31,320 nt of DNA, from assembly GCA_050010515.1 (NCBI GenBank), contig JBEKKX010000028.1, positions 1 through 31,320 on the forward strand, in the 5' to 3' direction. Made by a program: the position numbers and the translations under genes. The stretch is from Candidatus Bathyarchaeia archaeon. GTDB taxonomy: Archaea; Thermoproteota; Bathyarchaeia; Bathyarchaeales; Bathycorpusculaceae. Shown one piece after another: positions 1 to 25,354 of the stretch; positions within the stretch are counted from its first letter, which is position 1, and each line of letters opens with the position of its first letter. A model generated the notes under the pieces. The model saw only the letters and a list, made by a program, of their open reading frames with translations. It was not told the DNA's origin and made no database searches.

Positions 1-57
1 TCCATATGTCCATAACCAGCATACAAGACTTGTTTGAAAAGTAGATAACTCAGCTCC

Positions 58-117
58 AGTCGGTTGACTCTTCTAAAGTTTTCTGTTTCTTGTCGGTTAG
101 TTGGTAGTCGGATGACT
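58..117. promoter_or_regulatory. Two AGTC-N4-GACT palindromes (58-69, 106-117), candidate operator sites
   Basis: agtcggttgact and agtcggatgact lie 48 bp apart, with a degenerate tgtcggttagtt at 91-102, directly upstream of the TATA boxes of the 186..2822 gene. Confidence 0.4.
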
Positions 118-166: not shown

Positions 167-185
167 AAATTGAAGGAAAATAAAA

Positions 186-2822
186 ATGCAAAAACTGAAA
201 AGTAAAACTATGGCTATTCTTATTGCAGCACTTTTAACATTTTCAATGACAGCTTCAATGACACTAATACCAAACGCTAACGCCCACACACCACCATTGA
301 AAATTCCAACGTATTCTTTCATCAGTGCTTCACCCAACCCCGCAGGTGTCAATCAAACTGTTTACGTTAATTATTGGATTGACAAGGTTCCGCCAACAGC
401 AGAGGGCATATGGGGTTATAGGTGGCACAATATGATGGTGACAGTTACGAAGCCCGACGGAACCACTGCAATTGTGTACACAGCGAATTCTGATGCCGCA
501 GGAGGAACATGGGGCTCGTATGTGCCCGACGAAGTTGGCAACTACACTTTCGTAGGTACATTCCCTGACCAAATCGTAACAGTCGAAAATCCCACTCCCT
601 ATCCCAAACTATACTACCCCTATACCACCAATAACATTGGAATGATGAACATCAACGATACTTATACAGCCAGCAGCGCAAAAATGACGCTTAATGTACA
701 AGAGAAACCAATTTACACAGCTTATCCAAGTACTCCGCTTCCCACCCAATACTGGACTACCCCCATAAACTCGATGAACACGGAATGGTACAATATCAGC
801 GGAAATTGGCTTGGCCTCGGAGTACCACCATCAAGCTATAATGGAGCGTACAGCAGTAATGGGAACTTCGATCCATACACAACGGCGCCAAACAGCGCCC
901 ATATTTTGTGGACAAAGCCACTTGCTTTCGGGGGCCAAATTGGAGGAGCATTTAACGATAGCGAAACTGGTGTTTACGCGACAGGTTCACCCTATGAAAG
1001 CAAATTTGGAGCAGTAATAATAGACGGCGTACTCTACTATACCGAATCTCCAGGGGCTGCTAACGACATAGGACCTTTAACAGCTGTAAACCTACACACT
1101 GGAGAAACACTGTGGACTGTACAAGCTAATGCAACCCTAAGGGGTGGTATGGTATACAACTTTATAACCGGCGACCAATACGGCGCACACGCTTATCTAT
1201 TCACCGCTCCTCCGGCAAATTATGGATCCGTATTGCCACTTCCTCCAACCAACCTATGGTCAATGTATGATGCTATGACGGGACAGTGGATACTGAACAT
1301 TGCCAACGTAACCGCTGGAACGCTAGTTACGGGTCCAAACGGTGAACTTTTAAGTTACCGTGTGGCTGGTGGTATGTTGAGTCTGTGGAACGCAAGCAAA
1401 TGCATCGCAGCAGCTTCCCAAAAGTATAACACCTATTACCAATATAGCAGTCAGGAGATCTGGCGTCCTCCACCAGGAGCAACTATTGACTGGAAGGGTG
1501 GATACGAATGGAGCGTACCCGTAGCTAGTAAGAGCGCGAGCGGCGCGCCTATAAGTCTGGGACTTGTAAAAGTTGACACCTCAGACGGTGTAGCACTTTT
1601 GGATTGTTCACCCCCATTGCCACCGCCTGGAGGTTCCCAGACGGGTTGGCGAATTGACGCAGGCTATAGTACAATTGACGGGCATCTTTTGTGGGGTCCA
1701 CTAAACAGAACATTAACACCATACACAAACGTAATTATATCATACGCATCGGCGGGAGAGGGAGTCTACGTTGAATACACTAATCAATTTGAGACTTGGA
1801 CCGGTTACAGCATTTTAACAGGAGCTAAACTTTGGGGACCAACCGTGCCCTATAACAATCCTTGGGGATATTACGATTGGTATGACAAGGGAGTTATCGG
1901 CTATGGCAACTTGTACACATGGAGTATGGACGGTCATGTCTATTGTTACGACGTTAAAACGGGTACTGAGAAATGGAATTGGACCGCTGGAAATGCTGGA
2001 GCCGACACTCCCTACGGTACATGGCCTCTTGGCACGCGACCGTATGAATATATTCTTGCGGACGGAAAGATTTACGTAGATGCAGGTCATGACTACACTC
2101 CACCCTTGTTCAAAGGTGCACAGATATACTGCCTAAATGCTACTACCGGAGAGCTAATTTGGAGCTCTTTGAGCTTTAATGTTGAGGCCTCGCCTGCTAT
2201 AGCCGATGGCATCATGCTTTGGGACAATGCCTATGATACTCAGCTATACGCTTACGGCATGGGACCAAGCGCTACCACTGTTACGGCACCTGACGTTGGC
2301 GTGACAACCGCCACACCAGTGACGATAACGGGTTCAGTGATGGACATCTCTGCCGGCTCACAACAAAACGCAGTAGCAATGAACTTCCCACATGGTCTTC
2401 CATGCGTATCTGATGCAAGCATGAGTCAGTGGATGGAATACGTTTACGAGCAGCAGCCAATGCCAACAAACGCGACCGGCGTCCAAGTTACCCTGACAGC
2501 CATTGACCCCAACCACAACTTTATCACCCTTGGTACAGCTACAACTGACACCAGCGGCAACTACGGCTTCATTTGGACTCCTCCACAAATCCCAGGAACC
2601 TACCATATCACAGCCACATTCAACGGAACCAATTCCTACTACAGCTCATCCGACACAACCTATATGAACGTGCAAGCATCGGCAACACCAGCGCCAACCG
2701 CTACACCTATAACAGGCCTAGCAACAATGTCAGCCCTAACTTATGGAATCGTTGCTGTAATAATCGTAATAATCATTGCAATCGCCATAGTCGGCTTACT
2801 CTTACTAAGAAAAAAGCCATAA
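186..2822 (+). CDS. Secreted, C-terminally membrane-anchored PQQ-binding-like beta-propeller protein (paralog 1)
   Basis: 878 aa; N-terminal signal peptide (MQKLKSK...ANA/H); tryptophan-docking repeats (AVNLHTGETLW, CYDVKTGTEKW, CLNATTGELIW); C-terminal Ig-like region, PT linker and TM helix followed by RKKP. Confidence 0.85.
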   Translation: MQKLKSKTMAILIAALLTFSMTASMTLIPNANAHTPPLKIPTYSFISASPNPAGVNQTVYVNYWIDKVPPTAEGIWGYRWHNMMVTVTKPDGTTAIVYTANSDAAGGTWGSYVPDEVGNYTFVGTFPDQIVTVENPTPYPKLYYPYTTNNIGMMNINDTYTASSAKMTLNVQEKPIYTAYPSTPLPTQYWTTPINSMNTEWYNISGNWLGLGVPPSSYNGAYSSNGNFDPYTTAPNSAHILWTKPLAFGGQIGGAFNDSETGVYATGSPYESKFGAVIIDGVLYYTESPGAANDIGPLTAVNLHTGETLWTVQANATLRGGMVYNFITGDQYGAHAYLFTAPPANYGSVLPLPPTNLWSMYDAMTGQWILNIANVTAGTLVTGPNGELLSYRVAGGMLSLWNASKCIAAASQKYNTYYQYSSQEIWRPPPGATIDWKGGYEWSVPVASKSASGAPISLGLVKVDTSDGVALLDCSPPLPPPGGSQTGWRIDAGYSTIDGHLLWGPLNRTLTPYTNVIISYASAGEGVYVEYTNQFETWTGYSILTGAKLWGPTVPYNNPWGYYDWYDKGVIGYGNLYTWSMDGHVYCYDVKTGTEKWNWTAGNAGADTPYGTWPLGTRPYEYILADGKIYVDAGHDYTPPLFKGAQIYCLNATTGELIWSSLSFNVEASPAIADGIMLWDNAYDTQLYAYGMGPSATTVTAPDVGVTTATPVTITGSVMDISAGSQQNAVAMNFPHGLPCVSDASMSQWMEYVYEQQPMPTNATGVQVTLTAIDPNHNFITLGTATTDTSGNYGFIWTPPQIPGTYHITATFNGTNSYYSSSDTTYMNVQASATPAPTATPITGLATMSALTYGIVAVIIVIIIAIAIVGLLLLRKKP
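2682..2791 (+). repeat. 110-bp tract nearly identical to 7951-8060 (linker and TM anchor coding region)
   Basis: Manual alignment gives 108/110 identical; both differences are synonymous. Confidence 0.9.
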
Positions 2823-2850: not shown

Positions 2851-2866
2851 CTCTTTCCCCTTTTTT
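2851..2866 (+). terminator. Pyrimidine-rich/oligo-T archaeal terminator candidate
   Basis: ctctttcccctttttt about 30 nt after the stop codon; similar motifs at 8111-8127 and on the minus strand at 21324-21345. Confidence 0.5.
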
Positions 2867-3002
2867 AGTCTTTAGAAAGCAATGGAGAAAAAGGATAAGG
2901 GCTGAGAAGGCTCTGGTCAAATTCACGATGTTAGCCATAGCAATCGTGATAGCTTTTGCATTCTTTTCTCCTAAAGAGTGTTCCAGAGCCTCAGCAAACC
3001 CT
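2867..3002 (+). ncRNA. Putative structured RNA element, copy 1 (BHB-like closing stem, anti-RBS loop)
   Basis: Arms conserved with copy 2 (59/60 and 48/48 nt); inverted repeat aggg-ctga-gaa-ggctctgg (2898-2916) / ccagagcc-tcag-caaa-ccct (2983-3002); second pairing ggagaaaa (2884-2891) / ttttctcc (2964-2971). Strand inferred from BHB geometry. Confidence 0.55.
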
Positions 3003-3039
3003 CTCTGTACAAAGAAGAAAGTAGGCCGTCCAATTTAGA

Positions 3040-4023
3040 TCAGAATGTGGATATATATTGTTGTGGCGTTGGCCATCTGTCCGGGATTTTCCTTGAGCTA
3101 GCTTCAACTTTTGTTATACCACAGATTCTGGCGATTTGATCTTGGATGGCGAATGCTTGCGCAATGTCTCTTATCATAGCTGTTAATTGTAGATCATAAT
3201 CGCCGCTAGTTTTTGTAATTATAATTACATCGGGTATTTTCGCAAGTGACTCAACTATTGGCTCCGACAAGCCGCCGGGAGTGGTAAAAGCTATGTTGAA
3301 ATCTAATATCGAGGTGTATCCAATTTTATTTGGGTTTATTTGGATTGAAACCTTTATTGCGCCCTTTTCCGTGAGCTTGTGATATCTTTTTACGACTGTG
3401 TCAGTTGATAATCCTATTTCTTTTGCAATTTTAGTAAACGAGGCGCGTCCGTCCAACGTAAGTTTTCCTACTATTTGCTTGTCCAACTCATCAATTATGA
3501 TTCTATCACCCAGTGTACGGATTGCTTTGATTGAATTCCGTTGATTGCTTTCGCTGGTATCTTTCAGAGTGCCTGTCAGGTTCAAGTTTTCAGGAATGTT
3601 TCTAACGCCAGTCCAGATGTAAGTTTTTAATCCCATAGTAGGCAGCTTTCGCTTAATTACCTGCTTCACATGATCCAATTCATTTAGGTCCCTTAAAGTT
3701 GCAACTGCTCTAACATTGTAAACACTGTTATACTGCCGGTAAGCACGCGCCTCAGTTATTTTCCCTATAAATTCCATAACCTGTTCCATTTGCTGAGCCT
3801 CAACACTTATGAGCAGAGTTGCAAGTGCTTCATAACCGAAATGACCAAAATTCATCTGAGTTGTTGCTCCTTTAATTATGCCTCTTTTTTCCATCGCCCT
3901 GCAGCGTTTCCAAACTTTGTTTTTTGATACTCCACATTGTTTTGCTATTTCATAATAGCCGGTCCGACCATCTTGTAGCAGATTTTTAAGTATTTTTGAG
4001 TCAAGCTCATTGATTTTAGGCAC
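3040..4023 (-). CDS. Lrp/AsnC family transcriptional regulator with two HTH+RAM units
   Basis: 327 aa, GTG start; ELDSKILKNLLQDGR...EIAKQCGVS and DELDKQIVGKLTLDGRASFTKIAKEIGLS HTH motifs; TSGDYDL RAM motif. Confidence 0.9.
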   Translation of the reverse strand: MPKINELDSKILKNLLQDGRTGYYEIAKQCGVSKNKVWKRCRAMEKRGIIKGATTQMNFGHFGYEALATLLISVEAQQMEQVMEFIGKITEARAYRQYNSVYNVRAVATLRDLNELDHVKQVIKRKLPTMGLKTYIWTGVRNIPENLNLTGTLKDTSESNQRNSIKAIRTLGDRIIIDELDKQIVGKLTLDGRASFTKIAKEIGLSTDTVVKRYHKLTEKGAIKVSIQINPNKIGYTSILDFNIAFTTPGGLSEPIVESLAKIPDVIIITKTSGDYDLQLTAMIRDIAQAFAIQDQIARICGITKVEASSRKIPDRWPTPQQYISTF

Positions 4024-4151: not shown

Positions 4152-5162
4152 TTAAAAAGTCGATATATATTGGCGCGGCGTTGGCCATTTGCCTCGTACT
4201 CTCACTACCTCCATATCAATTTTCAATATTCCTCGAATTTTTCCAAGCTCTTCTTGAATTGAAAGCAACTGCTCTACATCCTGTACCATTGCCCATATTT
4301 GCAAATCGTAGTCTCCTGTTGTTTTCATGATGCTTATGATGTCAGGTATCTTGCTGATTTTCTCAATAATTAATAATGAATTTTCGTGCGAGGTGATAGT
4401 GAAAAAAAGGCATAAAGCTTGATAGCCAATTTTAATAGGGTTAATTTGAATTGTGACTTTTAATACACCGTTTTTCTTTAGTTTTTCGTATCTCCTTTTA
4501 GCAATATCAGATGAGATTCCTATTTCTCTACTGAGTGTCTCCATGGACAGCCGTCCGTTCTCAGAGAGTTTATCCGCTATTTTTTGATCAATCTGATCGA
4601 TAACCATGGTTTGAGGATTGCTTTTTTTCTGAGTCTTCGTCTGATAATTGATTGTTTCCACAACATTTTTCCTGTTATCAGGAATTATTGCCAAGTTATC
4701 GTTCATTTCTTTTACATCTGTCCAGATTGCAGTTTTCATTTCTAAGACCGAAAAATGCCTTTTGATGGCATCTTTGATCTCGTTCAATTGTTCAAGCGTT
4801 TTAAGGGTTGTAATAACATCTATGTTCCCTTTGACTCCCCTTTTATAGAAGGAATAAACCTCTGGCATTTTTTGCAAGTATTCGATAAACTGATCTTCTT
4901 GCCGTGAGTCAACATTGATTAGGAGGTGTGCTACCGCTTTGTAACCAAAGCTTTTATAATTAATATGTATTGTCGCTCCTGTAATTATGCCAGCTTGTTC
5001 CATTTGGCCACGATTTTTCTTAACAATTTCTTTGGTCAAGCCTATTTTTTTCGCAATTTCACTATCACTTTTGCGACCATCCGCTATTAACTCTTTGAGA
5101 ATTTTTGCCTGAACTGCGCTAACTTGCTCGGTTAAGACTACTATCCCTCTTTTGACGTTCAT
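4152..5162 (-). CDS. Lrp/AsnC family transcriptional regulator with two HTH+RAM units (paralog)
   Basis: 336 aa; KILKELIADGRKSDSEIAKKIGL and DQIDQKIADKLSENGR HTHs; TTGDYDL; shares C-terminus WPTPxQYISTF with its neighbour; exact start uncertain. Confidence 0.9.
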   Translation of the reverse strand: MNVKRGIVVLTEQVSAVQAKILKELIADGRKSDSEIAKKIGLTKEIVKKNRGQMEQAGIITGATIHINYKSFGYKAVAHLLINVDSRQEDQFIEYLQKMPEVYSFYKRGVKGNIDVITTLKTLEQLNEIKDAIKRHFSVLEMKTAIWTDVKEMNDNLAIIPDNRKNVVETINYQTKTQKKSNPQTMVIDQIDQKIADKLSENGRLSMETLSREIGISSDIAKRRYEKLKKNGVLKVTIQINPIKIGYQALCLFFTITSHENSLLIIEKISKIPDIISIMKTTGDYDLQIWAMVQDVEQLLSIQEELGKIRGILKIDMEVVRVRGKWPTPRQYISTF

Positions 5163-5327: not shown

Positions 5328-5377
5328 TTTTAAATATGAAACAACAGGAAGACCTTGATTACCGAAAAAGGAGAAAA
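5328..5377 (+). promoter_or_regulatory. TATA box and Shine-Dalgarno-like site of the second PQQ-like gene
   Basis: ttttaaata at 5328-5336; aggag at 5369-5373 before the ATG at 5386. Confidence 0.5.
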
Positions 5378-5385
5378 AAAGAAAA

Positions 5386-8091
5386 ATGACAAATAAACTA
5401 ATGGGAATTTCTAAAAACAAAATACGAGCTATTGCGATCGCTATATTCTTTATGTTTTCAATGACAGCTTCAATGATGCTAGTGCCAACTACTAGTGCAC
5501 ATTCGCCAGCATGGAAAATTCCAACATATGCTTACATTAACGTTTCACCTAACCCAGTAGGTACCGGTCAATCAGTGGAAGTTATCATGTGGCTTAACTT
5601 GGTAATAGATGGAGCAGCAATACCCAATGATGTTCGATGGCATAACTACAGTCTCACCATTACTGCGCCTGACGGCACAAAAACAACAACGAGTTGGGCT
5701 GTTGTCCAAGATTCAACAGGAAATCAGGACTATTTCTTCACACCAACCCAAGTAGGCACGTACACATTTACCTTCACTTTCCCAGGACAACAGTACACTT
5801 ACACTGAGCCAGTTTTATCCTTCATCTACTTTACTTATGGAGAAAGCCCATACTATGGCGATACTTATGAAGCCAGCACTGCGTCAACAAATCTCACTGT
5901 GCAAAGCTCACCAGTAGCCGCAATTCCAGCAACTCCGCTTCCGACTGCATACTGGACACGACCAATATACGGTGAGAACTCTAACTGGTACACGATTTCA
6001 TCAAACTGGTTAGGTGACGGCGCACCAGGATATTATGGGTTCGCTAATACATACAATTTGGGAGGCAACGGTGAACAATTAGCAGGAGCAGGAGACCTAG
6101 TAGGTTCTCTTACCAGCCACGTTATGTGGACTAAGCCCCTGCAAATGGGCGGCATTGTCGGAGGAAACCAAACTGCAATCCAAGGAGACTCATTCTTCGA
6201 GGGTTCCGCGTACAATCAGAGATACAACAATCCGATAATTGTTGGCGGATTTTTGTACTACACTGAACCTATATCATTCGCAGGTGTTCCTGGTTCAATG
6301 ACTGGTAGTGCTTATGGACCAACCGACTGCGTCAACCTGCAAACAGGGCAACTTGTTTGGTCTCGCAGCGACGTACCTGCACTGTCATTCGCCTACATTT
6401 ATGACGTTCAAGACTCTAACCAACACGGAGTTTACCCGCCAATACTCTTCACGTCAAATTGGGAGGCTTTTGATGCATACACAGGAGATCCAATGTTTAC
6501 CGTAACTAATGTTCCCTCAGGCACAACAATACTCGGTTCAAATGGCGAACACCTAATAATAAGCATGGTAAACTATGGTCCAGTCAACGAATATGGTGCT
6601 CCTACAGGTCCTCCAAAATACTATCTGCAAGAGTGGAACTCATCTCGACTGTGGACTGGTCAATACAATGGTGAATCAACATCGCCCGCTGTAGTTCCTC
6701 CATATCTTAACGGAGCCAATCCAGTCATGCTAGACTGGAACGTTTCCGTGCCGTACCTGAACACTGCGGGGTCTACCACCGAAGTAGGAGCAATCAATAA
6801 TGATCTGCTGCTTTGTTACAACGGTAGTCTACCTGCAATTGGCGCCGTGTTCATGGGTTTACCAAGCTGGACTCCCTACGAGTACTTCGCAGTCAACATT
6901 GACCAAAGTAGCGGCAGTCTCGGTTCGATACTATGGCACCAGACCTATAACCCGCCAGCAGGAAATATCACTGTCCTAGAGGCCGGAATTGACCCAGTAA
7001 ACCGTGTCTTCGTCGAAAACTACAGGGAAACTGCGCAATATGTAGGCTACAGCTTGGATACAGGTCTGAAGCTCTGGGGTCCAACTACACCGCAAGCATA
7101 CCTTGATTACTATGGCAGCCCAGCATCCGGCAGCTTGGCAAATGCGTTTGCTTATGGTAAAATGTACAGTAGCGCATACGCAGGAATAGTCTATTGCTAC
7201 GACACAAAGACTGGCGACTTACTATGGACCTACGGCAATGGCGGCGAAGGCAACAGCACAAATTCTGGTGTTGAAACTCCATTCAGCCACTATCCAACCT
7301 TCGTTAACGCTATCGGCAACGGAGTAGTATATACTGTTACCACTGAACATACCCCTGAAACACCACTTTTCAAGGGTGGATTAGCACGCGCTATTAACGC
7401 TACAACTGGAGCAGAAATCTGGACAATCTCAGAGTATACTGGTGAATTCGAGAGTTTCAGTTACGCTATGGCAGACGGCTACAATACATGGTTCAACGGT
7501 TATGACAACCAAATCTACGTTGTAGGCAGAGGACCAAGCGCTACCACAGTTACCGCACCTAACATTGGCGTGACAACCGCCACACCAATAACGATAACAG
7601 GTACAGTAATGGATGTTTCCACGGGCACACAACAAACAGAGCAGAAAGGAGACTTTCCGAATGGTGTTCCAGTTGCATCTGATGCAAGCATGACTCAGTG
7701 GATGGGCTACGTTTACCAGCAACAACCAGAACCAACCAACTTCAAAGGCGTTCCAGTACAAATCGCGGTCTTAGACTCTAACGGAAACCACTATCCAATC
7801 GGCACTGCCACAACTGATGAATATGGCACTTACAGCCTTACATGGACACCTATCATTTCAGGCAACTACACTGTTTACGCTACTTTCGCTGGCACCAACG
7901 GTTACTGGCCATCATCTGCAGACACACACATCTATGCTAGCGCGCCACCAGCAACACCAGCGCCAACCGCTACACCTATAACAGGCCTAGCAACAATGTC
8001 AGCTCTAACTTATGGAATCGTTGCTGTAATAATCGTAATAATCATTGCAATAGCCATAGTTGGATTGTTAATACTCAGGAAACACGCATAG
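5386..8091 (+). CDS. Secreted, C-terminally membrane-anchored PQQ-binding-like beta-propeller protein (paralog 2)
   Basis: 901 aa; signal peptide; CVNLQTGQLVW, CYDTKTGDLLW, AINATTGAEIW repeats; same domain order and C-terminal anchor as 186..2822. Confidence 0.85.
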   Translation: MTNKLMGISKNKIRAIAIAIFFMFSMTASMMLVPTTSAHSPAWKIPTYAYINVSPNPVGTGQSVEVIMWLNLVIDGAAIPNDVRWHNYSLTITAPDGTKTTTSWAVVQDSTGNQDYFFTPTQVGTYTFTFTFPGQQYTYTEPVLSFIYFTYGESPYYGDTYEASTASTNLTVQSSPVAAIPATPLPTAYWTRPIYGENSNWYTISSNWLGDGAPGYYGFANTYNLGGNGEQLAGAGDLVGSLTSHVMWTKPLQMGGIVGGNQTAIQGDSFFEGSAYNQRYNNPIIVGGFLYYTEPISFAGVPGSMTGSAYGPTDCVNLQTGQLVWSRSDVPALSFAYIYDVQDSNQHGVYPPILFTSNWEAFDAYTGDPMFTVTNVPSGTTILGSNGEHLIISMVNYGPVNEYGAPTGPPKYYLQEWNSSRLWTGQYNGESTSPAVVPPYLNGANPVMLDWNVSVPYLNTAGSTTEVGAINNDLLLCYNGSLPAIGAVFMGLPSWTPYEYFAVNIDQSSGSLGSILWHQTYNPPAGNITVLEAGIDPVNRVFVENYRETAQYVGYSLDTGLKLWGPTTPQAYLDYYGSPASGSLANAFAYGKMYSSAYAGIVYCYDTKTGDLLWTYGNGGEGNSTNSGVETPFSHYPTFVNAIGNGVVYTVTTEHTPETPLFKGGLARAINATTGAEIWTISEYTGEFESFSYAMADGYNTWFNGYDNQIYVVGRGPSATTVTAPNIGVTTATPITITGTVMDVSTGTQQTEQKGDFPNGVPVASDASMTQWMGYVYQQQPEPTNFKGVPVQIAVLDSNGNHYPIGTATTDEYGTYSLTWTPIISGNYTVYATFAGTNGYWPSSADTHIYASAPPATPAPTATPITGLATMSALTYGIVAVIIVIIIAIAIVGLLILRKHA
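7951..8060 (+). repeat. 110-bp tract nearly identical to 2682-2791
   Basis: 108/110 identical by manual alignment. Confidence 0.9.
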
Positions 8092-8127: not shown

Positions 8128-8259
8128 AGTCTCTAGAAAGCAATGGAGAAAAAGGATAAGGGCTGAGAAGGCTCTGGTCAAATTCACAAGAAACAGTAGC
8201 CATTAGCAAGCTTTGCATTCTTTTCTCCTAAAGAGTGTTCCAGAGCCTCAGCAAACCCT
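8128..8259 (+). ncRNA. Putative structured RNA element, copy 2
   Basis: Same arms as 2867-3002 with a different 24-nt core (8188-8211). Confidence 0.55.
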
Positions 8260-8654
8260 AAATGCTAAGATGCCACCTGTCCCTCATGGTTTTTTTAAGA
8301 AAACATGGCTTAGTTTTTCCAAGAGATGCCGGGGCAGTTTTGATTTATGATAGCTATTGGGGATTAAACGATTTTTTGTATAAGCCAAATATCAGTTTTA
8401 ACATAAAATTCTATGTTCGAAGCGCCTTTTTATGCACTCCTTGGCACTATTGGTGCTGTTCTTCTGCTTGTTGGCTGAATGGATATATTTTTTAAAAAAT
8501 CACGGATGCCAATGCGATTGGAATCAAGCTTGGTTTCTAAGATTAAAGCCCAAGAGAACTTACCGCGGATGTGTTGTTATATTTTTTGTGTCTGTTTTGA
8601 TAAGGCTTAATAGTTTCCTATGCCGTGTCATCTTAATTATAACGTGACCTTGTT

Positions 8655-21350: not shown

Positions 21351-24300
21351 TTACTTTGTTTTAGTTTCTGGCGTCTTAGGCGCAGTTGAATCCAGTTTAA
21401 TAATGTAGTTCGTGTTATTTTTCACTGGAACGGATGCTGGTATTGAAGTGTTGTATCCTGTGGCGTTGGCTTTGATTGTGTAATCGCCTTTTTGTACGTT
21501 GCTGAAAATGATTTGTCCCTGGCTTCCAGTAGTGCCTGTCAAAGTTTTCGGGCCAGTGGCTGAGACAGTTGCTCCAGAAATGGGCGAGTTCGTTTGTGAG
21601 TTTTGCACTGTTACTGTAAGGTTGCGGTGGCGTCTGTACCATGCAAGGATTATGAGGATCAACACTATGATGATGACGATGACCACTATGACCCAGTCAA
21701 CTGGGCCGAAAACGAATGCTGCTGCAGTTGCTGCTGGCGTTAGCGTTGGAGTTGGCGTTGGCGACGCAGTAGGAACTGGAGTGGGCTTTGCAGTAGGAAC
21801 TGGAGTGGGCTTTGCAGTAGGAACTGGAGTGGGCGCCGCAGTGGGAACTGGCGTTGATGTTACAGTGGCCGAAGCCGTGACAGCCGCAGCGGTAGACTGA
21901 GCCGAAGTCGCGCCTGAACTGTCAGTAACCGTCGCAGTAATCGAGTAAGAACCCGCGGAAGCAGGAGAATAACTAAACGTTGACGCAGTCTGACCTGACT
22001 GAGCAACTCCATTCACATACCACTGATAACTTGTGTAAGACCCTGAACCGCCGCTAGGAGTAGCAGTAAACAGTTGAGACTGCCCAACATTCAAAGTCGC
22101 AGTTCCAGGAGAGACAGTAACAGTCGGAGCAGCAACATTCACCGTAACCGAAGCCGCTGCAGACGTAACCACAACCGCGGTAGTGGCGCTGTCAGTCACT
22201 TGAAGCTCAAAACTCCAAACACCCGTAGCCGTAGAACCAGAAGTAACAAAAGAAAAGCTTGCTGAATTCGTACCGACATCAACGTATGAACCGCCAGGAG
22301 CCTTCTCAAACCATTGATACGTGTAAGGAGAAGTACCCGTAGACACAGCAGTAGAAGTCAAACTGCTAGTCTGACCTTGATCAACCGTGCCAGGAGTAGG
22401 CGTCACGGTTGGAGCAGCCAACGCAGGGTTCACCGTTACTGCAACACTGGATGAAGTTGCAGTTGCCGCTGGAGTCGCAGAGCCTGTTCCCGTATCTGTG
22501 AATACTACGTAGATTCCAGTGTCTGAGGCTGCAGGAGCATATGTAGCAGTTGTTCCCGTTCCAGATGCGCCTGATATGCCTGATGGATTGCTACTATCAT
22601 ACCACTGCCATGAAAATGACCCAGTTCCACCAGTCACCGTAGACGATATTGACTGCCCACTGTCTATGGCTGCAGAAGGCTGCACAGATATTGAAGGCGC
22701 AGAGTCCACAGTAACCGATGCAGCATTTGATGGAACCGAAGTCGCACTTAAACTGTCAGTAACCTTCACGGTAATCGAGAAAGTGCCTGCATTTGGAGAC
22801 CCCCAAGTCATCGTTGACGCCGCTCCAGACTGAGCTAATTGCCCATTCACATACCACTGGTAACTTGTGTAAGTGCCTGAGCCGCCGCTGGGCGTAGCAG
22901 TAAACAGTTGAGATTGACCAACATCCATCGTAAACGGACCCACAGGAGCAACACTGACAGTAGGCGAAGTATTCACAGTAACGGATGCAGGGGTTGACTG
23001 TGACGAAGTGGTTCCTGTGTTGTCAGTGACAGTCACAGCTATTGAATGTGAACCTGTTGTTGATGGCGTGTAGCTGAAGCTTGCTGAGGCTGTGCTGCCT
23101 TGTGATGCGCTATCCACGTACCATGTGTAGCTGGTGTAGGTGCCAGAGCCGCCCGTTGCCGTAGCAGTAAACGATTTCGATTGGCCTATGTCCATTGTCC
23201 AACTTGTCGGGGAAAGATTCGCTACTGGAACGTTTGGCGAGACGTATGCGAGCACTTGGCCACCGTAAACGATGTATAGTATGCCGTTTACAACGGGGGT
23301 TGAACTGAAAAGCTGGTATCCGGCGTTTAGGTGCCAGAGTTCTAATCCTGATGTCACGTTAATGGCTTCAAGGCGGTAGGAGTAATAGCCGTTAAATCCC
23401 AAGTACAGTACGTTGCCTGCAATTACTGGAGAGCACCAGGTGCCGTAACCCTGCCCAGTGGGCAGTGAGTAATTCCATACGCTGGCCCCCGTCGCAGCGT
23501 TGACAGCGTAGATGTTGCCGTCCCATGAACCGAAGTAAACCACTCCTGCGAAAACAGCTGGAGTGGAATCGATTGATCCGCCGGTTGTAAAGTTCCATAA
23601 TGATAGCCCTGTGGTAGCGTTGAGAGCGTAGAGGTTCTTGTCCCATGAACCGAAGTAGACTATGCCGTTGCTTACAGTTGGAGAACCATAGTTGTTGCCG
23701 CCTGTGGTATAGTTCCACAATTCATTTCCAGTCGTGGCGTTAAAGGCGAAGAAATTCGGCACCGAGTTGAGAGTGGCATAGAAGGTTACGTAAACGATTC
23801 CGTTAGCGACACCTGGAGCACAGTAAGTACCCCAACCGCCCACTCCCGTTGAGCAATTCCACAGCTGAGCCCCCGTCATCGCGTTGAAAGCAAATACGAC
23901 GCTTTGGCCGTCGCCGATATAGAGGACATGCCCACAACAACTGGGCTTCCAGCGAAATCGTCGCCTGTAATGGAGTAGTCCCATATTATTTGACCTGTGT
24001 TTTCGTTGAAGGCGTAAATGGTTCCGTTCAGTGATCCATCATAGACCATACCGTTTGCGACGGCGGGAGCACCGCGGAACTCGTAATTGTCACCTTCATT
24101 GAAGGCCCAAACTGTCGCTCCATTTGATGCGTTGAAAGCGTACAGGTGACCATCGTCGCCCATAAAAACTAGGCCGTCGGCAATTGTGGGTGAACCTCTG
24201 CCGCCGATAATATCAAGGTTGGCGTGCCACAGCTGGATTGGAGAGGCTGTTGGTCCTGCAGTAGCGGTGTATCCTGAGTTGGTTGCATCATGCGCGAACA

Positions 24301-25354
24301 TGGGCCAGTCCGAGGGCACGCTTATCACCGACACCGAGTTGCCTCCGTTATTTGCAACGTAGACATATGGGCAGTTATTCGGTGCAACCACGCCCCAAGG
24401 GGCGTTTAAACCTAAACCGGTTATCGTGTCCACCACTGTGTTCGTAACCGTGCTTATCACCGCAACTTCATTATCGCCGTAAATTGGAACATAGACATAT
24501 GCGCCGTCGGGTGTTACAGCAAGAGAGTGACCTTGACTTAAACCGGTTATCGTCGCCGTAATCGGATTCGAACCCGTGCCTATCAACGAGGTTTGTATCA
24601 CCGAGACCGTGCCCGTGGCGCTATTCTCAACATAGGCGTGTGAACCGTCGGGCGTTATAGCCACACCCCAAGGGTCGTGGTCAAAACCGCTTATCGTCGC
24701 AATCACATTGTAGGGGCTAGCCGTACTAAACACCGTGACCGAGTTGCTGCCTTGATCTGCGACATAGGCAAGTGAACCGTCGGGTGTTATGGTTATATCG
24801 CGAGGCCGGCTTAAACCAGATACACTCCCCACCTGTGTGTAGCTAGTCGTATTGAACACCAAGACCGAATCGCCCGTTACAACAAAGACGTCACTACCAT
24901 CGTGCGATACAGCCACACCCCACGGGGAGTTGCCAATAAGTGTTGAGGTTTCGATTTGCGTCACCGTATTCGCAGTCGTGTCTATCATGTAGAGCCCTCC
25001 GCCGCTTTCACCTTCGGGGTCAGTTGTAACATAGACATCATGGTCGTTGGGCATGGCCACGCAATCAGGATAGCCATCGGTTACATTAAACGTCGTCACG
25101 GTATTATCGGATGTCCGTATCACCGAGACCGTGCCCCCAGTACTCGAAGCAGTGCCCCCCTGAATCGCAACAGCAACGTATGCACCGTCGGGCGATGCAC
25201 CCATTCCGCGAGGCCCAACGGCCGGAGCTCCAACGGATATCGGGTTCGTAAACGCTCGCACCGGCTGGGGCAATAATGCTAAAGAACTAAACAAGAAGAA
25301 GATGGCGAGAAAGATGCAGCCAACTCTCAAAGTTTTTGTCGTCTCATGCTTCAT
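21351..25354 (-). pseudogene. Large cell-surface protein (signal peptide, YVTN-type propeller, PQQ-like propeller, PKD/Ig-like repeats, PT linker, TM, C-terminal beta-sandwich) split by a 1-nt frameshift near 23928
   Basis: ORFs 23876..25354 and 21351..23984 join inside one PQQ repeat: ...FAGSPVVVG / (N)VLYIGDGQ...; compare intact SPVIAGNVLYLG downstream; repaired length ~1334 aa. Confidence 0.8.
21766..21851 (-). repeat. 24-bp tandem repeat, about 3.6 units, encoding a (PTPVPTAK)n linker
   Basis: gcagtaggaactggagtgggcttt twice exact, plus two variant or partial units. Confidence 0.9.

Follow-up and report, generated by a model that had tools for sequence, protein, structure and literature searches.

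A candidate structured RNA behind surface-protein genes of Bathyarchaeia carries an antisense image of the start sites of the same gene family

Introduction

The window analysed here is a stretch of 31,320 nucleotides (nt) from Candidatus Bathyarchaeia archaeon (assembly GCA_050010515.1, contig JBEKKX010000028.1, positions 1-31,320, forward strand), and it carries, behind each of two related surface-protein genes, one copy of a structured element whose loop resembles in antisense the translation start sites of that gene family. Gene 1 (186..2822, plus strand) is an open reading frame (ORF) with Pfam PQQ_2 and Big_3_5 domains and encodes a surface-protein paralog of 878 amino acids (aa), with a signal peptide, a PQQ/BamB-like beta-propeller, an immunoglobulin (Ig)-like domain and a C-terminal transmembrane (TM) anchor that ends in LLRKKP. 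Gene 2 (5386..8091, plus strand), likewise recognised as an ORF and through Pfam, encodes a paralog of 901 aa. The genome, which we searched as 2.38 Mb in 66 contigs, holds 11 such surface-protein paralogs, gene 1 among them, and they share one build of about 850-930 aa with signal peptide, PQQ/BamB-like propeller, Ig-like domain and C-terminal TM anchor. In both genes the stop codon is followed by a block of about 165 nt, and the segment 2932-2972 is the loop of the block behind gene 1. Parts of the block are 92-100% identical between copies 1 and 2 (100% over 2955-3002), compared with 75-87% at the DNA level for the repeat blocks inside the two genes.

The uncultured Bathyarchaeia are archaea that abound in soils, in peat and in sediments, and their gene regulation is almost entirely unexplored. 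An earlier reading of the window, referred to below as the original prediction, held that 2932-2972 is antisense to the translation-initiation regions of the two genes, and that it serves either for long-range silencing in cis or as a trans-acting antisense RNA through which an expressed paralog represses its siblings. We find that 2932-2972 is one part of a previously undescribed structured element of about 105-130 nt, a candidate plus-strand RNA module found behind many surface-protein genes of Bathyarchaeia from soil and peat, and that the best complements of its exposed tract in whole genomes are the start sites of the surface-protein paralogs in four lineages.

Architecture of the element

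The architecture was drawn from an alignment of 30 copies from several genera, folded with RNAalifold. Its closing helix, P1, is a 15-base-pair (bp) stem with two 3-nt bulges that is conserved in sequence and not in structure alone: the 5' side reads GG, GCUG, a 3-nt bulge A-R-W and RGGCUCUGG, and the 3' side reads CCAGAGCCY, CAGC, an AAA bulge and CC. In the copy behind gene 1 the 5' arm of P1 (GGGCTGAGAAGGCTCTGG) lies at 2899..2916 and the 3' arm (CCAGAGCCTCAGCAAACCC), with its near-invariant AAA bulge, at 2983..3001, both on the plus strand. Over 57 distinct copies, 98.1% of cells are paired in P1 and 7 of 13 pairs have changed on both sides; none of 500 shuffles gave pairing and compensatory values as high, for an alignment that had itself been fitted to the model. 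A kink-turn reading of the P1 bulges was considered and dropped after comparison by eye with the consensus.

A short A-rich joiner follows the 5' arm of P1 and leads into P2, a hairpin of the predicted fold at 2923..2949 (plus strand) with the arms TCACGAT and ATCGTGA. Its apical loop (GTTAGCCATAGCA, 2930-2942, plus strand) is antisense to CTATGGCTA, codons 8-10 of paralogs of the MQKLKSKTMAI type, and P2 includes an 11-nt exact match to paralog coding 5' ends that was equalled by 1 of 100 shuffles. P2 is found in only part of the element family, with z < -2 in 26% of copies, and as a universal helix it was rejected, its support being only moderate (mean z -1.0). An ORF of about 39 codons (2928-3047, plus strand) opens in copy 1 from an ATG within the P2 arm (MLAIAIVIAFAFFSPKE...), and since copy 2 has no ATG there it is probably a chance occurrence.

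Beyond P2 lies the anti-initiation tract, TTTTGCATTCTTTTCTCCT at 2954..2972 on the plus strand, which is 100% identical in copy 2. Two parts of it are antisense to initiation signals, CAT (2959-2961) to AUG and CTCC (2968-2971) to the GGAG core of a Shine-Dalgarno (SD) sequence. The exposed tract reads UUUUCUCCU..CAU. In the 30-copy alignment a pyrimidine tract, (U)UGCAUUUUCUCUUUUCUCCUUUA, precedes the 3' arm of P1, and its general form, (U)UGCAUUUUCUCUUUUCUCCU, is the antisense of the start of the genes for the C-terminally anchored surface proteins, from the SD through spacer and AUG to the second codon. The predicted probability of being unpaired is 0.79 for CUCC, against 0.42 for the whole element; for CAU it is 0.54, with partial pairing to AAAUG in the 5' part of the loop. 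Copy 2 of the element (8158..8260, plus strand; covariance-model match of 91.7 bits; repeat families D10 and D12) has its P1 arms at 8160-8177 and 8240-8258 and its anti-initiation tract at 8212-8229, again on the plus strand.

The flanks of P1 add further features. A T-run, CCCCTTTTTT at 2857..2866 (plus strand), is the presumed oligo-U terminator of gene 1 and lies 32 nt before P1; it could also act as a TATA-like box for the element. Just 5' of P1, at 2884..2894 on the plus strand, is a purine-rich, SD-like tract, GGAGAAAAAGG, which is complementary to the loop's UUUUCUCC. Across the element family, 40 of 95 copies have GGAG within their 5' flank of 26 nt, the SD-like GGAGAA tract lying 5-25 nt upstream of P1, and because this GGAGAA flank is complementary to the loop's UUCUCC it is possible that the flank forms a pseudoknot with the tract or masks it within the same molecule. 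The duplex energy between 5' flank and tract is -8.4, against -4.0 and -3.5 for control flanks, and the pairing shows no cognate specificity (1,543 of 5,000 permutations reached at least the observed value).

In a second family of the order (f5) the flanks of P1 pair with each other as a further helix, P0, of 9-13 bp in 15 of 16 copies; cognate flank pairs there average -14.5 compared with -12.1 for non-cognate ones, and none of 10,000 permutations was as good, which is suggestive of a separate RNA, about 130 nt long, whose ends pair. In one complete genome of that family (G284, loci L226-L241), P0 takes up 12 nt on each side of P1 and shows compensatory changes, for example AGAAATGG/CCATTTCT versus AAACAAGG/CCTTGTTT, and is followed by a U-rich stretch. 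Inspection by eye did not reveal P0 in the window's own family. The Rfam models, those of C/D-box and H/ACA guide RNAs among them, gave no match at the gathering score, and the best sub-threshold hits (10.9-15.8 bits, E 3.3-7.1) are at the level of chance. A search of the literature for structured RNAs in Bathyarchaeia yielded nothing pertinent.

The composition of the helices bears on the strand. In the plus orientation P1 contains 45 G.U against 19 A.C combinations (binomial p 0.0016), and the plus strand folds better than the minus strand in 65 versus 40 copies (p 0.03) and for the loop alone in 62 versus 39 (p 0.0013), so that the plus strand appears to be favoured.

Distribution and genomic position

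Genomes were searched with a covariance model built from the aligned copies; gene starts, anchor tails and signal-peptide-like ORFs were assigned by simple rules, and the related genomes that enter the counts are not independent of one another. The source genome has seven complete copies and one cut by a contig end, each of them directly 3' of one of the 11 paralogs. The family-wide search gave 276 matches, at most 19 of them in any one genome, and these came from 46 of 151 genomes and 19 of 70 genera. Across a sample of the class, 8 of 15 genomes of the window's own family and 3 of 5 of the second family were positive; two further families gave single matches, and the other families sampled gave none.

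When copies were collected without reference to genes, 33 of the 50 that could be assessed followed a co-oriented gene whose product has a proline- and threonine-rich (PT-rich) linker, a TM helix and a basic tail, while 15 followed no gene and 2 another kind of gene. At 80 paralog loci, 50 of 51 copies are on the strand of the gene. The gap between stop codon and element is 49-96 nt (median 64). The complete genome G284 has the element behind 14 of its 15 full-length paralogs, and when coordinates were matched by eye 14 of its 17 element matches were seen to follow a paralog. A role as 5' leader for a downstream paralog is not general, a signal-peptide-like ORF being found within 800 nt downstream in only 17 of 94 copies.

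In 84 of 103 copies a run of at least five T lies between stop codon and element, within 90 nt upstream of the latter and in most cases at a distance of 15-35 nt. The paralogs C6, C11a and C11b of the source genome have the T-run and lack the element, from which it follows that the T-run is the gene's own and the element an addition behind it. Where no paralog lies upstream, copies often adjoin divergent genes for TrmB- or Lrp-like regulators; at seven loci (L078, L079, L086, L088, L092, L094 and L098) they were noted about 150 nt from the start of such a gene, and a regulator at the protein level may belong to the same system as the element. Since A/T-rich boxes lie 25-60 nt upstream of the copies that have no gene in front of them, it is plausible that these copies have a promoter of their own and form their own transcription unit.

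Copies of the element also mark contig ends. The last approximately 80 bases of contig C30 are identical to the start of the window (1-80), so that gene 1 is preceded, at a distance of about 270 nt, by a third paralog together with its element, and contig C5 begins inside another copy; the element repeats break the assembly at these loci.

Likeness of the loop to paralog start sites

The reverse complement of 2932-2972, aggagaaaagaATGcaaaagctatcacgattgctATGgcta, reads like a ribosome-binding site with an ATG behind it and, after 20 nt, a second ATG that runs on into GCTA, and mimics the start of gene 1, aaggaaaataaaaATGcaaaaactgaaaagtaaaactATGgcta (compared in the original prediction over 170-216, plus strand), with an ATG-to-ATG spacing of 23 nt in the image and 24 nt in the gene. 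The pairings that had been read from the window are borne out by the sequence: 2951-2962 matches 185-196 at 11 of 12 positions, 2932-2940 matches 208-216 at 9 of 9, and the loops of both window copies (2964-2972 and 8221-8229) match the SD region of gene 2 (AGGAGAAAA, 5369-5377, plus strand) at 9 of 9; copy 2 keeps TTTGCATT and TAGCCAT, as had been stated. Against a shuffled control the likeness also stands, the loop image scoring 26.75 with the -30..+75 region of gene 1 while the shuffles gave 15.5 +/- 2.9 and 0 of 200 reached it. A BLAST search of the element against its own genome returned antisense matches at three paralog starts, C6:57686-57714, C12:12092-12115 and C12:15484-15507.

The central claim of the original prediction, that the loop is an antisense image of paralog translation-initiation regions, is thus confirmed, and the image is conserved rather than an accident of one copy, with CTCC in 97 of 105 distinct copies. 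In 65 of these 97 a CAT lies 6-12 nt 5' of CTCC, which is the GGAG-to-ATG spacing of the genes, and about half of the copies have TTGCAT, the complement of ATGCAA, with which many paralogs begin. It had been conceded at the outset that the segment might be the decayed start of an oppositely oriented paralog. One half of this stands, since the loop does look derived from an inverted 5' end, and the other does not: the loop is not decaying, because the scaffold around it is conserved in 19 genera or more. The presence of the element in 19 of 70 genera and in a second family, and the complete identity of 2955-3002 with copy 2, speak against a decaying pseudogene start.

Pairing with start regions across genomes

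We computed duplex energies, with intramolecular structure ignored, between the loops and 3,027 candidate start regions of the source genome. The best target of loop 1 (the loop of the copy behind gene 1) is a paralog, C6:57703, at -49.4 kcal/mol, against a background of -22.5 +/- 5.0 and -43.5 for the best non-paralog; three more paralogs rank 4, 8 and 12 of the 3,027. For the loops C5, C28b and C30, paralogs take ranks 1, 2 and 3-4. The gene 1 start, which the original prediction had used for its comparison and which belongs to the element's own gene, counts against that prediction here and ranks only 546 of 3,027 for loop 1 (-26.9), and gene 2 by the same measure ranks 2,631 for loop 1 and 672 for loop 2. 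The 11-mer AGGAGAAAAGA occurs 10 times in the genome, four times in start regions, three of which are those of paralogs.

The result was replicated in other lineages by searching whole genomes for the loop tract with at most 3 mismatches, the control being the pattern read backwards; two of the matches counted as elements below were assigned from covariance-model coordinates and not by regular expression. Genus g48 (4 genomes) gave 17 matches (control 0-1 per genome), of which 6 are elements and 9 have an ORF of at least 78 aa at the ATG, 5 of these being paralogs. Genus g3 gave 7 matches (control 0-1 per genome), comprising 4 elements and 2 gene starts, both of them paralogs, and the second family (f5, g79) gave 13 matches (control 0), namely 5 elements, 5 paralog starts, 2 small ORFs and 1 other site.

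The tract and the start sites change together between families, a GGAG type standing against a GGUG type. The f5 loops read UUCACCUUC, UUCAUUCCUUC or UAUCCUCAA, with a shorter spacer, and the f5 paralog starts (15 in the complete genome G284) read GAAGGTGAA, GAAGGAATGAA or TTGAGGAAT. For the energies the f5 start sites were collected by protein homology, and 11 of 78 loci with evidently wrong starts had been removed by eye, both here and before the comparison of own and other genes given below. The f5 loops average -18.7 kcal/mol with f5 starts and -14.4 with f1 starts, and the f1 loops average -16.2 kcal/mol with f1 starts and -11.6 with f5 starts; it is because the within-family energies beat the cross-family ones that we speak of a joint change. 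Co-variation of loops with paralog 5' ends, which the original prediction had named as a check, is thus seen between families and, as described below, not significantly between individual genomes. Within G284 several loop variants were noted that parallel several start-site variants.

Discussion

We propose that a plus-strand RNA made from the element pairs in trans with the initiation regions of sibling paralogs and blocks initiation, a reading which we regard as a serious possibility that falls just short of being probable, and which the structure and complementarities of the element suggest. In this mechanism the RNA would be made by read-through from the paralog, or from its own promoter overlapping the T-run; its exposed tract would pair in trans with the initiation regions of sibling mRNAs, to which the apical loop of P2 might add pairing with codons 8-11 in the source lineage; the pairing would block binding of the 30S subunit; and the level of one paralog unit would in this way set the translation of the others, so that gene copies damp each other. 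A larger scheme, in which each paralog unit carries a small antisense RNA against the start sites of the family and the units that are transcribed set a hierarchy or a near-exclusive choice of the surface protein translated, amounts to a sibling-control RNA network and seems to us unlikely; mutually exclusive expression, as first envisaged, is speculation.

A number of results weigh against the proposal of pairing in trans. For the loops C12a, C12b and C43 the best paralog comes only at ranks 8, 15 and 47, and many start regions unrelated to the paralogs come close to them in pairing energy when they combine a strong SD with an A-rich spacer, the best reaching the -43.5 kcal/mol given above. 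A permutation of cognate against non-cognate pairs in 14 genomes was not significant, either for the full region (3,577 of 20,000) or for the coding part (1,204 of 20,000). The coding-part match beat shuffles (at most 5 of 100) in only 10 of 46 loops, mostly from close relatives of the source genome; the P2 apical loops of these 10 fall into two classes, with the image CTATGGCT (as at 2932-2940) or AATTGCAGCTAT, which are common variants of codons 8-11. Gene conversion between inverted copies could be an alternative cause of the co-variation. The strand evidence is statistical and modest, and runs of at least four T come after the element in 63 of 103 copies on the minus strand and in only 29 of 103 on the plus strand. 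There is also no clear division of the paralogs into donors and targets: the best-paired starts in the source genome do belong to the element-less paralogs C6, C11a and C11b, but the idea that element-less genes are the targets was rejected, with -26.4 for genes that lack the element versus -24.7 for genes that carry it (p 0.11) in 67 other paralogs and the element present behind nearly all of the G284 paralogs. Lastly, if the mRNAs of the paralogs have no leader, they offer no SD for the tract to pair with. Two tandem CCCTTTATAAATA boxes were noted upstream of gene 1 (126-166), the proximal TATA-like box ending 20 nt before the ATG; such boxes follow a spacing rule of -26/-27, and because the proximal box ends 20 nt from the ATG a leaderless gene 1 transcript without the SD-like region is possible alongside a leadered one.

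Several other explanations need to be set beside pairing in trans. The hok mRNA of plasmid R1 is subject to fold-back inhibition (fbi/tac), in which a 3' element complementary to the 5' translation region acts in cis on the same molecule. The element shares this 3'-to-5' complementarity, and as a 3' untranslated region (UTR) that pairs with the start of its own mRNA it might circularise, silence or stabilise that mRNA in the same manner. Its co-orientation with the gene at a short distance past the stop codon would suit such an arrangement, as would the 11 of 12 and 9 of 9 matches of gene 1 to its own element. The cis preference of hok was looked for here and not found. Own-gene starts rank 546, 672, 1254, 106, 93, 940 and 1348 of 3,027; over 26 loops the own-gene mean is -23.1 compared with -24.8 to -26.5 for other genes; and in G284 the own gene gives -18.1 and the other paralogs -18.8. 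As own-gene pairing is never preferred, cis fold-back, and with it the silencing of the same mRNA entertained in the original prediction, is unsupported, and with 15 of 50 copies lacking an upstream gene altogether we consider it very improbable, even though the read-through that it needs is plausible, archaeal U-tract terminators being described as graded in efficacy (PMC8716108). A reading on the minus strand would take the loop, within a convergent transcript, as a genuine or decoy initiation site, a micro-ORF, or a sponge for ribosomes or for a regulator of paralog leaders. The reverse complement of the loop does have canonical SD-ATG spacing, 74 of 97 copies having the ATG, P1 can form on both strands, and the T-rich stretch described above would follow the element on that side. 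The excess of G.U over A.C in the plus orientation and the better folding of the plus strand speak for the opposite direction; moreover, two source-genome copies have ACG for ATG, the small ORFs are 6-30 aa with no conserved end, no conserved A/T box was seen by eye at a fixed distance on the minus side, and such an RNA would run antisense into the surface-protein gene. A conserved minus-strand peptide was rejected, since frames (including those of copies 1 and 2) and stop positions differ, and the minus-strand reading as a whole is, in our estimate, distinctly unlikely.

The element might instead be a plus-strand structured RNA that serves some other purpose: it could be a handle for a protein, it could stabilise the 3' end, or it could form an internal pseudoknot with its SD-like flank. 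The likeness to start sites would then have been inherited from an inverted paralog 5' end and kept by gene conversion. Conservation of P1 and its bulges in sequence suggests a bound partner, the purine-rich 5' flank can pair with the tract, CAU is in part engaged by the AAAUG of the loop, and cognate specificity is lacking; all of this would fit. What such an RNA leaves unexplained is why the tract follows the paralog starts from family to family in SD type, in the length of the spacer and in the second codon, and why CUCC is the most exposed part; the shared stretches are also only about 20-25 nt, which is short for gene conversion. We think this alternative unlikely. A DNA-level role has its own attractions: the element could be a site of recombination or the end of a cassette, in the manner of attC, a segment that inverts, or what is left of an inverted paralog start. 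Integron attC sites are structured, imperfect inverted repeats that carry extrahelical bases, vary in their centre and close each gene unit of an array on the 3' side; they follow unrelated cassettes and conserve structure over sequence. The element likewise marks the 3' boundary of every gene unit where these stand in tandem, with imperfect inverted repeats, bulges and a variable centre, and assemblies break at it, contigs C30 and C5 ending or starting inside or beside copies. It differs in that the linked genes are all of one family with the same C-terminal anchor and no mixed cassettes, that its sequence is conserved across genera, and that the G.U asymmetry points to RNA; attC core sites were not seen, and no integrase or other recombinase was searched for. 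With regard to inversion, all 105 distinct copies align one way to an asymmetric model and, apart from a single copy, those at paralog loci are on the strand of the gene, no inversion being seen, while conservation across 19 genera and the exposed tract argue against a relic. A DNA-level element is a quite improbable account.

Among tested archaeal systems the closest precedent for pairing in trans is the small RNA (sRNA) sRNA162 of Methanosarcina mazei, in which an unstructured single-stranded linker base-pairs with mRNA and masks the predicted ribosome-binding site, and whose targets include both a neighbouring gene and genes at other sites, with binding shown experimentally (PMC3510493). 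The element likewise has a region, predicted to be accessible, that is complementary to the SD and start codon of its candidate targets. sRNA162 is a single gene, whereas the element is a multi-copy family (at most 19 matches per genome) tied to the 3' flank of one paralogous family; unlike sRNA162 it holds an image of the start of its own host family inside a conserved stem scaffold, and it is known from sequence alone. Bacterial 3' UTR-derived small RNAs that act in trans, exemplified by the one from the glutamine synthetase 3' UTR (PMC9731577), resemble the element in lying on the same strand at the 3' region of an mRNA (here co-oriented in 50 of 51 copies at paralog loci, at a gap of 49-96 nt). 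In contrast, the element sits beyond a T-run that resembles the terminator of the gene, occurs also in gene-less copies, and has the siblings of its host gene as its proposed targets. In haloarchaea, control of translation through a functional interplay of 5' and 3' UTRs has been described (PMC2636863). The 3' UTR takes part in translational control there too, but the case is one of cis action, bears no relation to the element in sequence or structure, and the available part of the report describes no antisense image of a start site.

As a candidate structured RNA the element is conserved, is present in multiple copies and has a target logic that can be read from it. If pairing in trans is true, it would amount to a family-wide, self-targeting antisense control of the surface-protein repertoire in a lineage that is not yet genetically tractable, and the sibling-control network, if real, would be an archaeal post-transcriptional counterpart of surface-antigen switching. 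However the element works, the covariance model adds a new RNA family for use in annotation and explains the assembly breaks at these loci.

Other features of the window

Between the two surface-protein units lies a pair of paralogous genes on the minus strand (3040-4023 and 4152-5162; Pfam HTH_AsnC-type and AsnC_trans_reg) for double-helix-turn-helix (HTH) regulators of the Lrp/AsnC type, which are outside the element and form its context. Further along, 21351-25354 (minus strand) encodes a different and larger surface-protein pair, with no copy of the element behind it. One member (21351-23984) combines a PQQ propeller with PKD and CarboxypepD_reg domains and the other is a repeat-rich ORF (23876-25354, minus strand), and the pair contains internal direct repeats of 80-85 nt and GT-rich tandem units of 12 nt.

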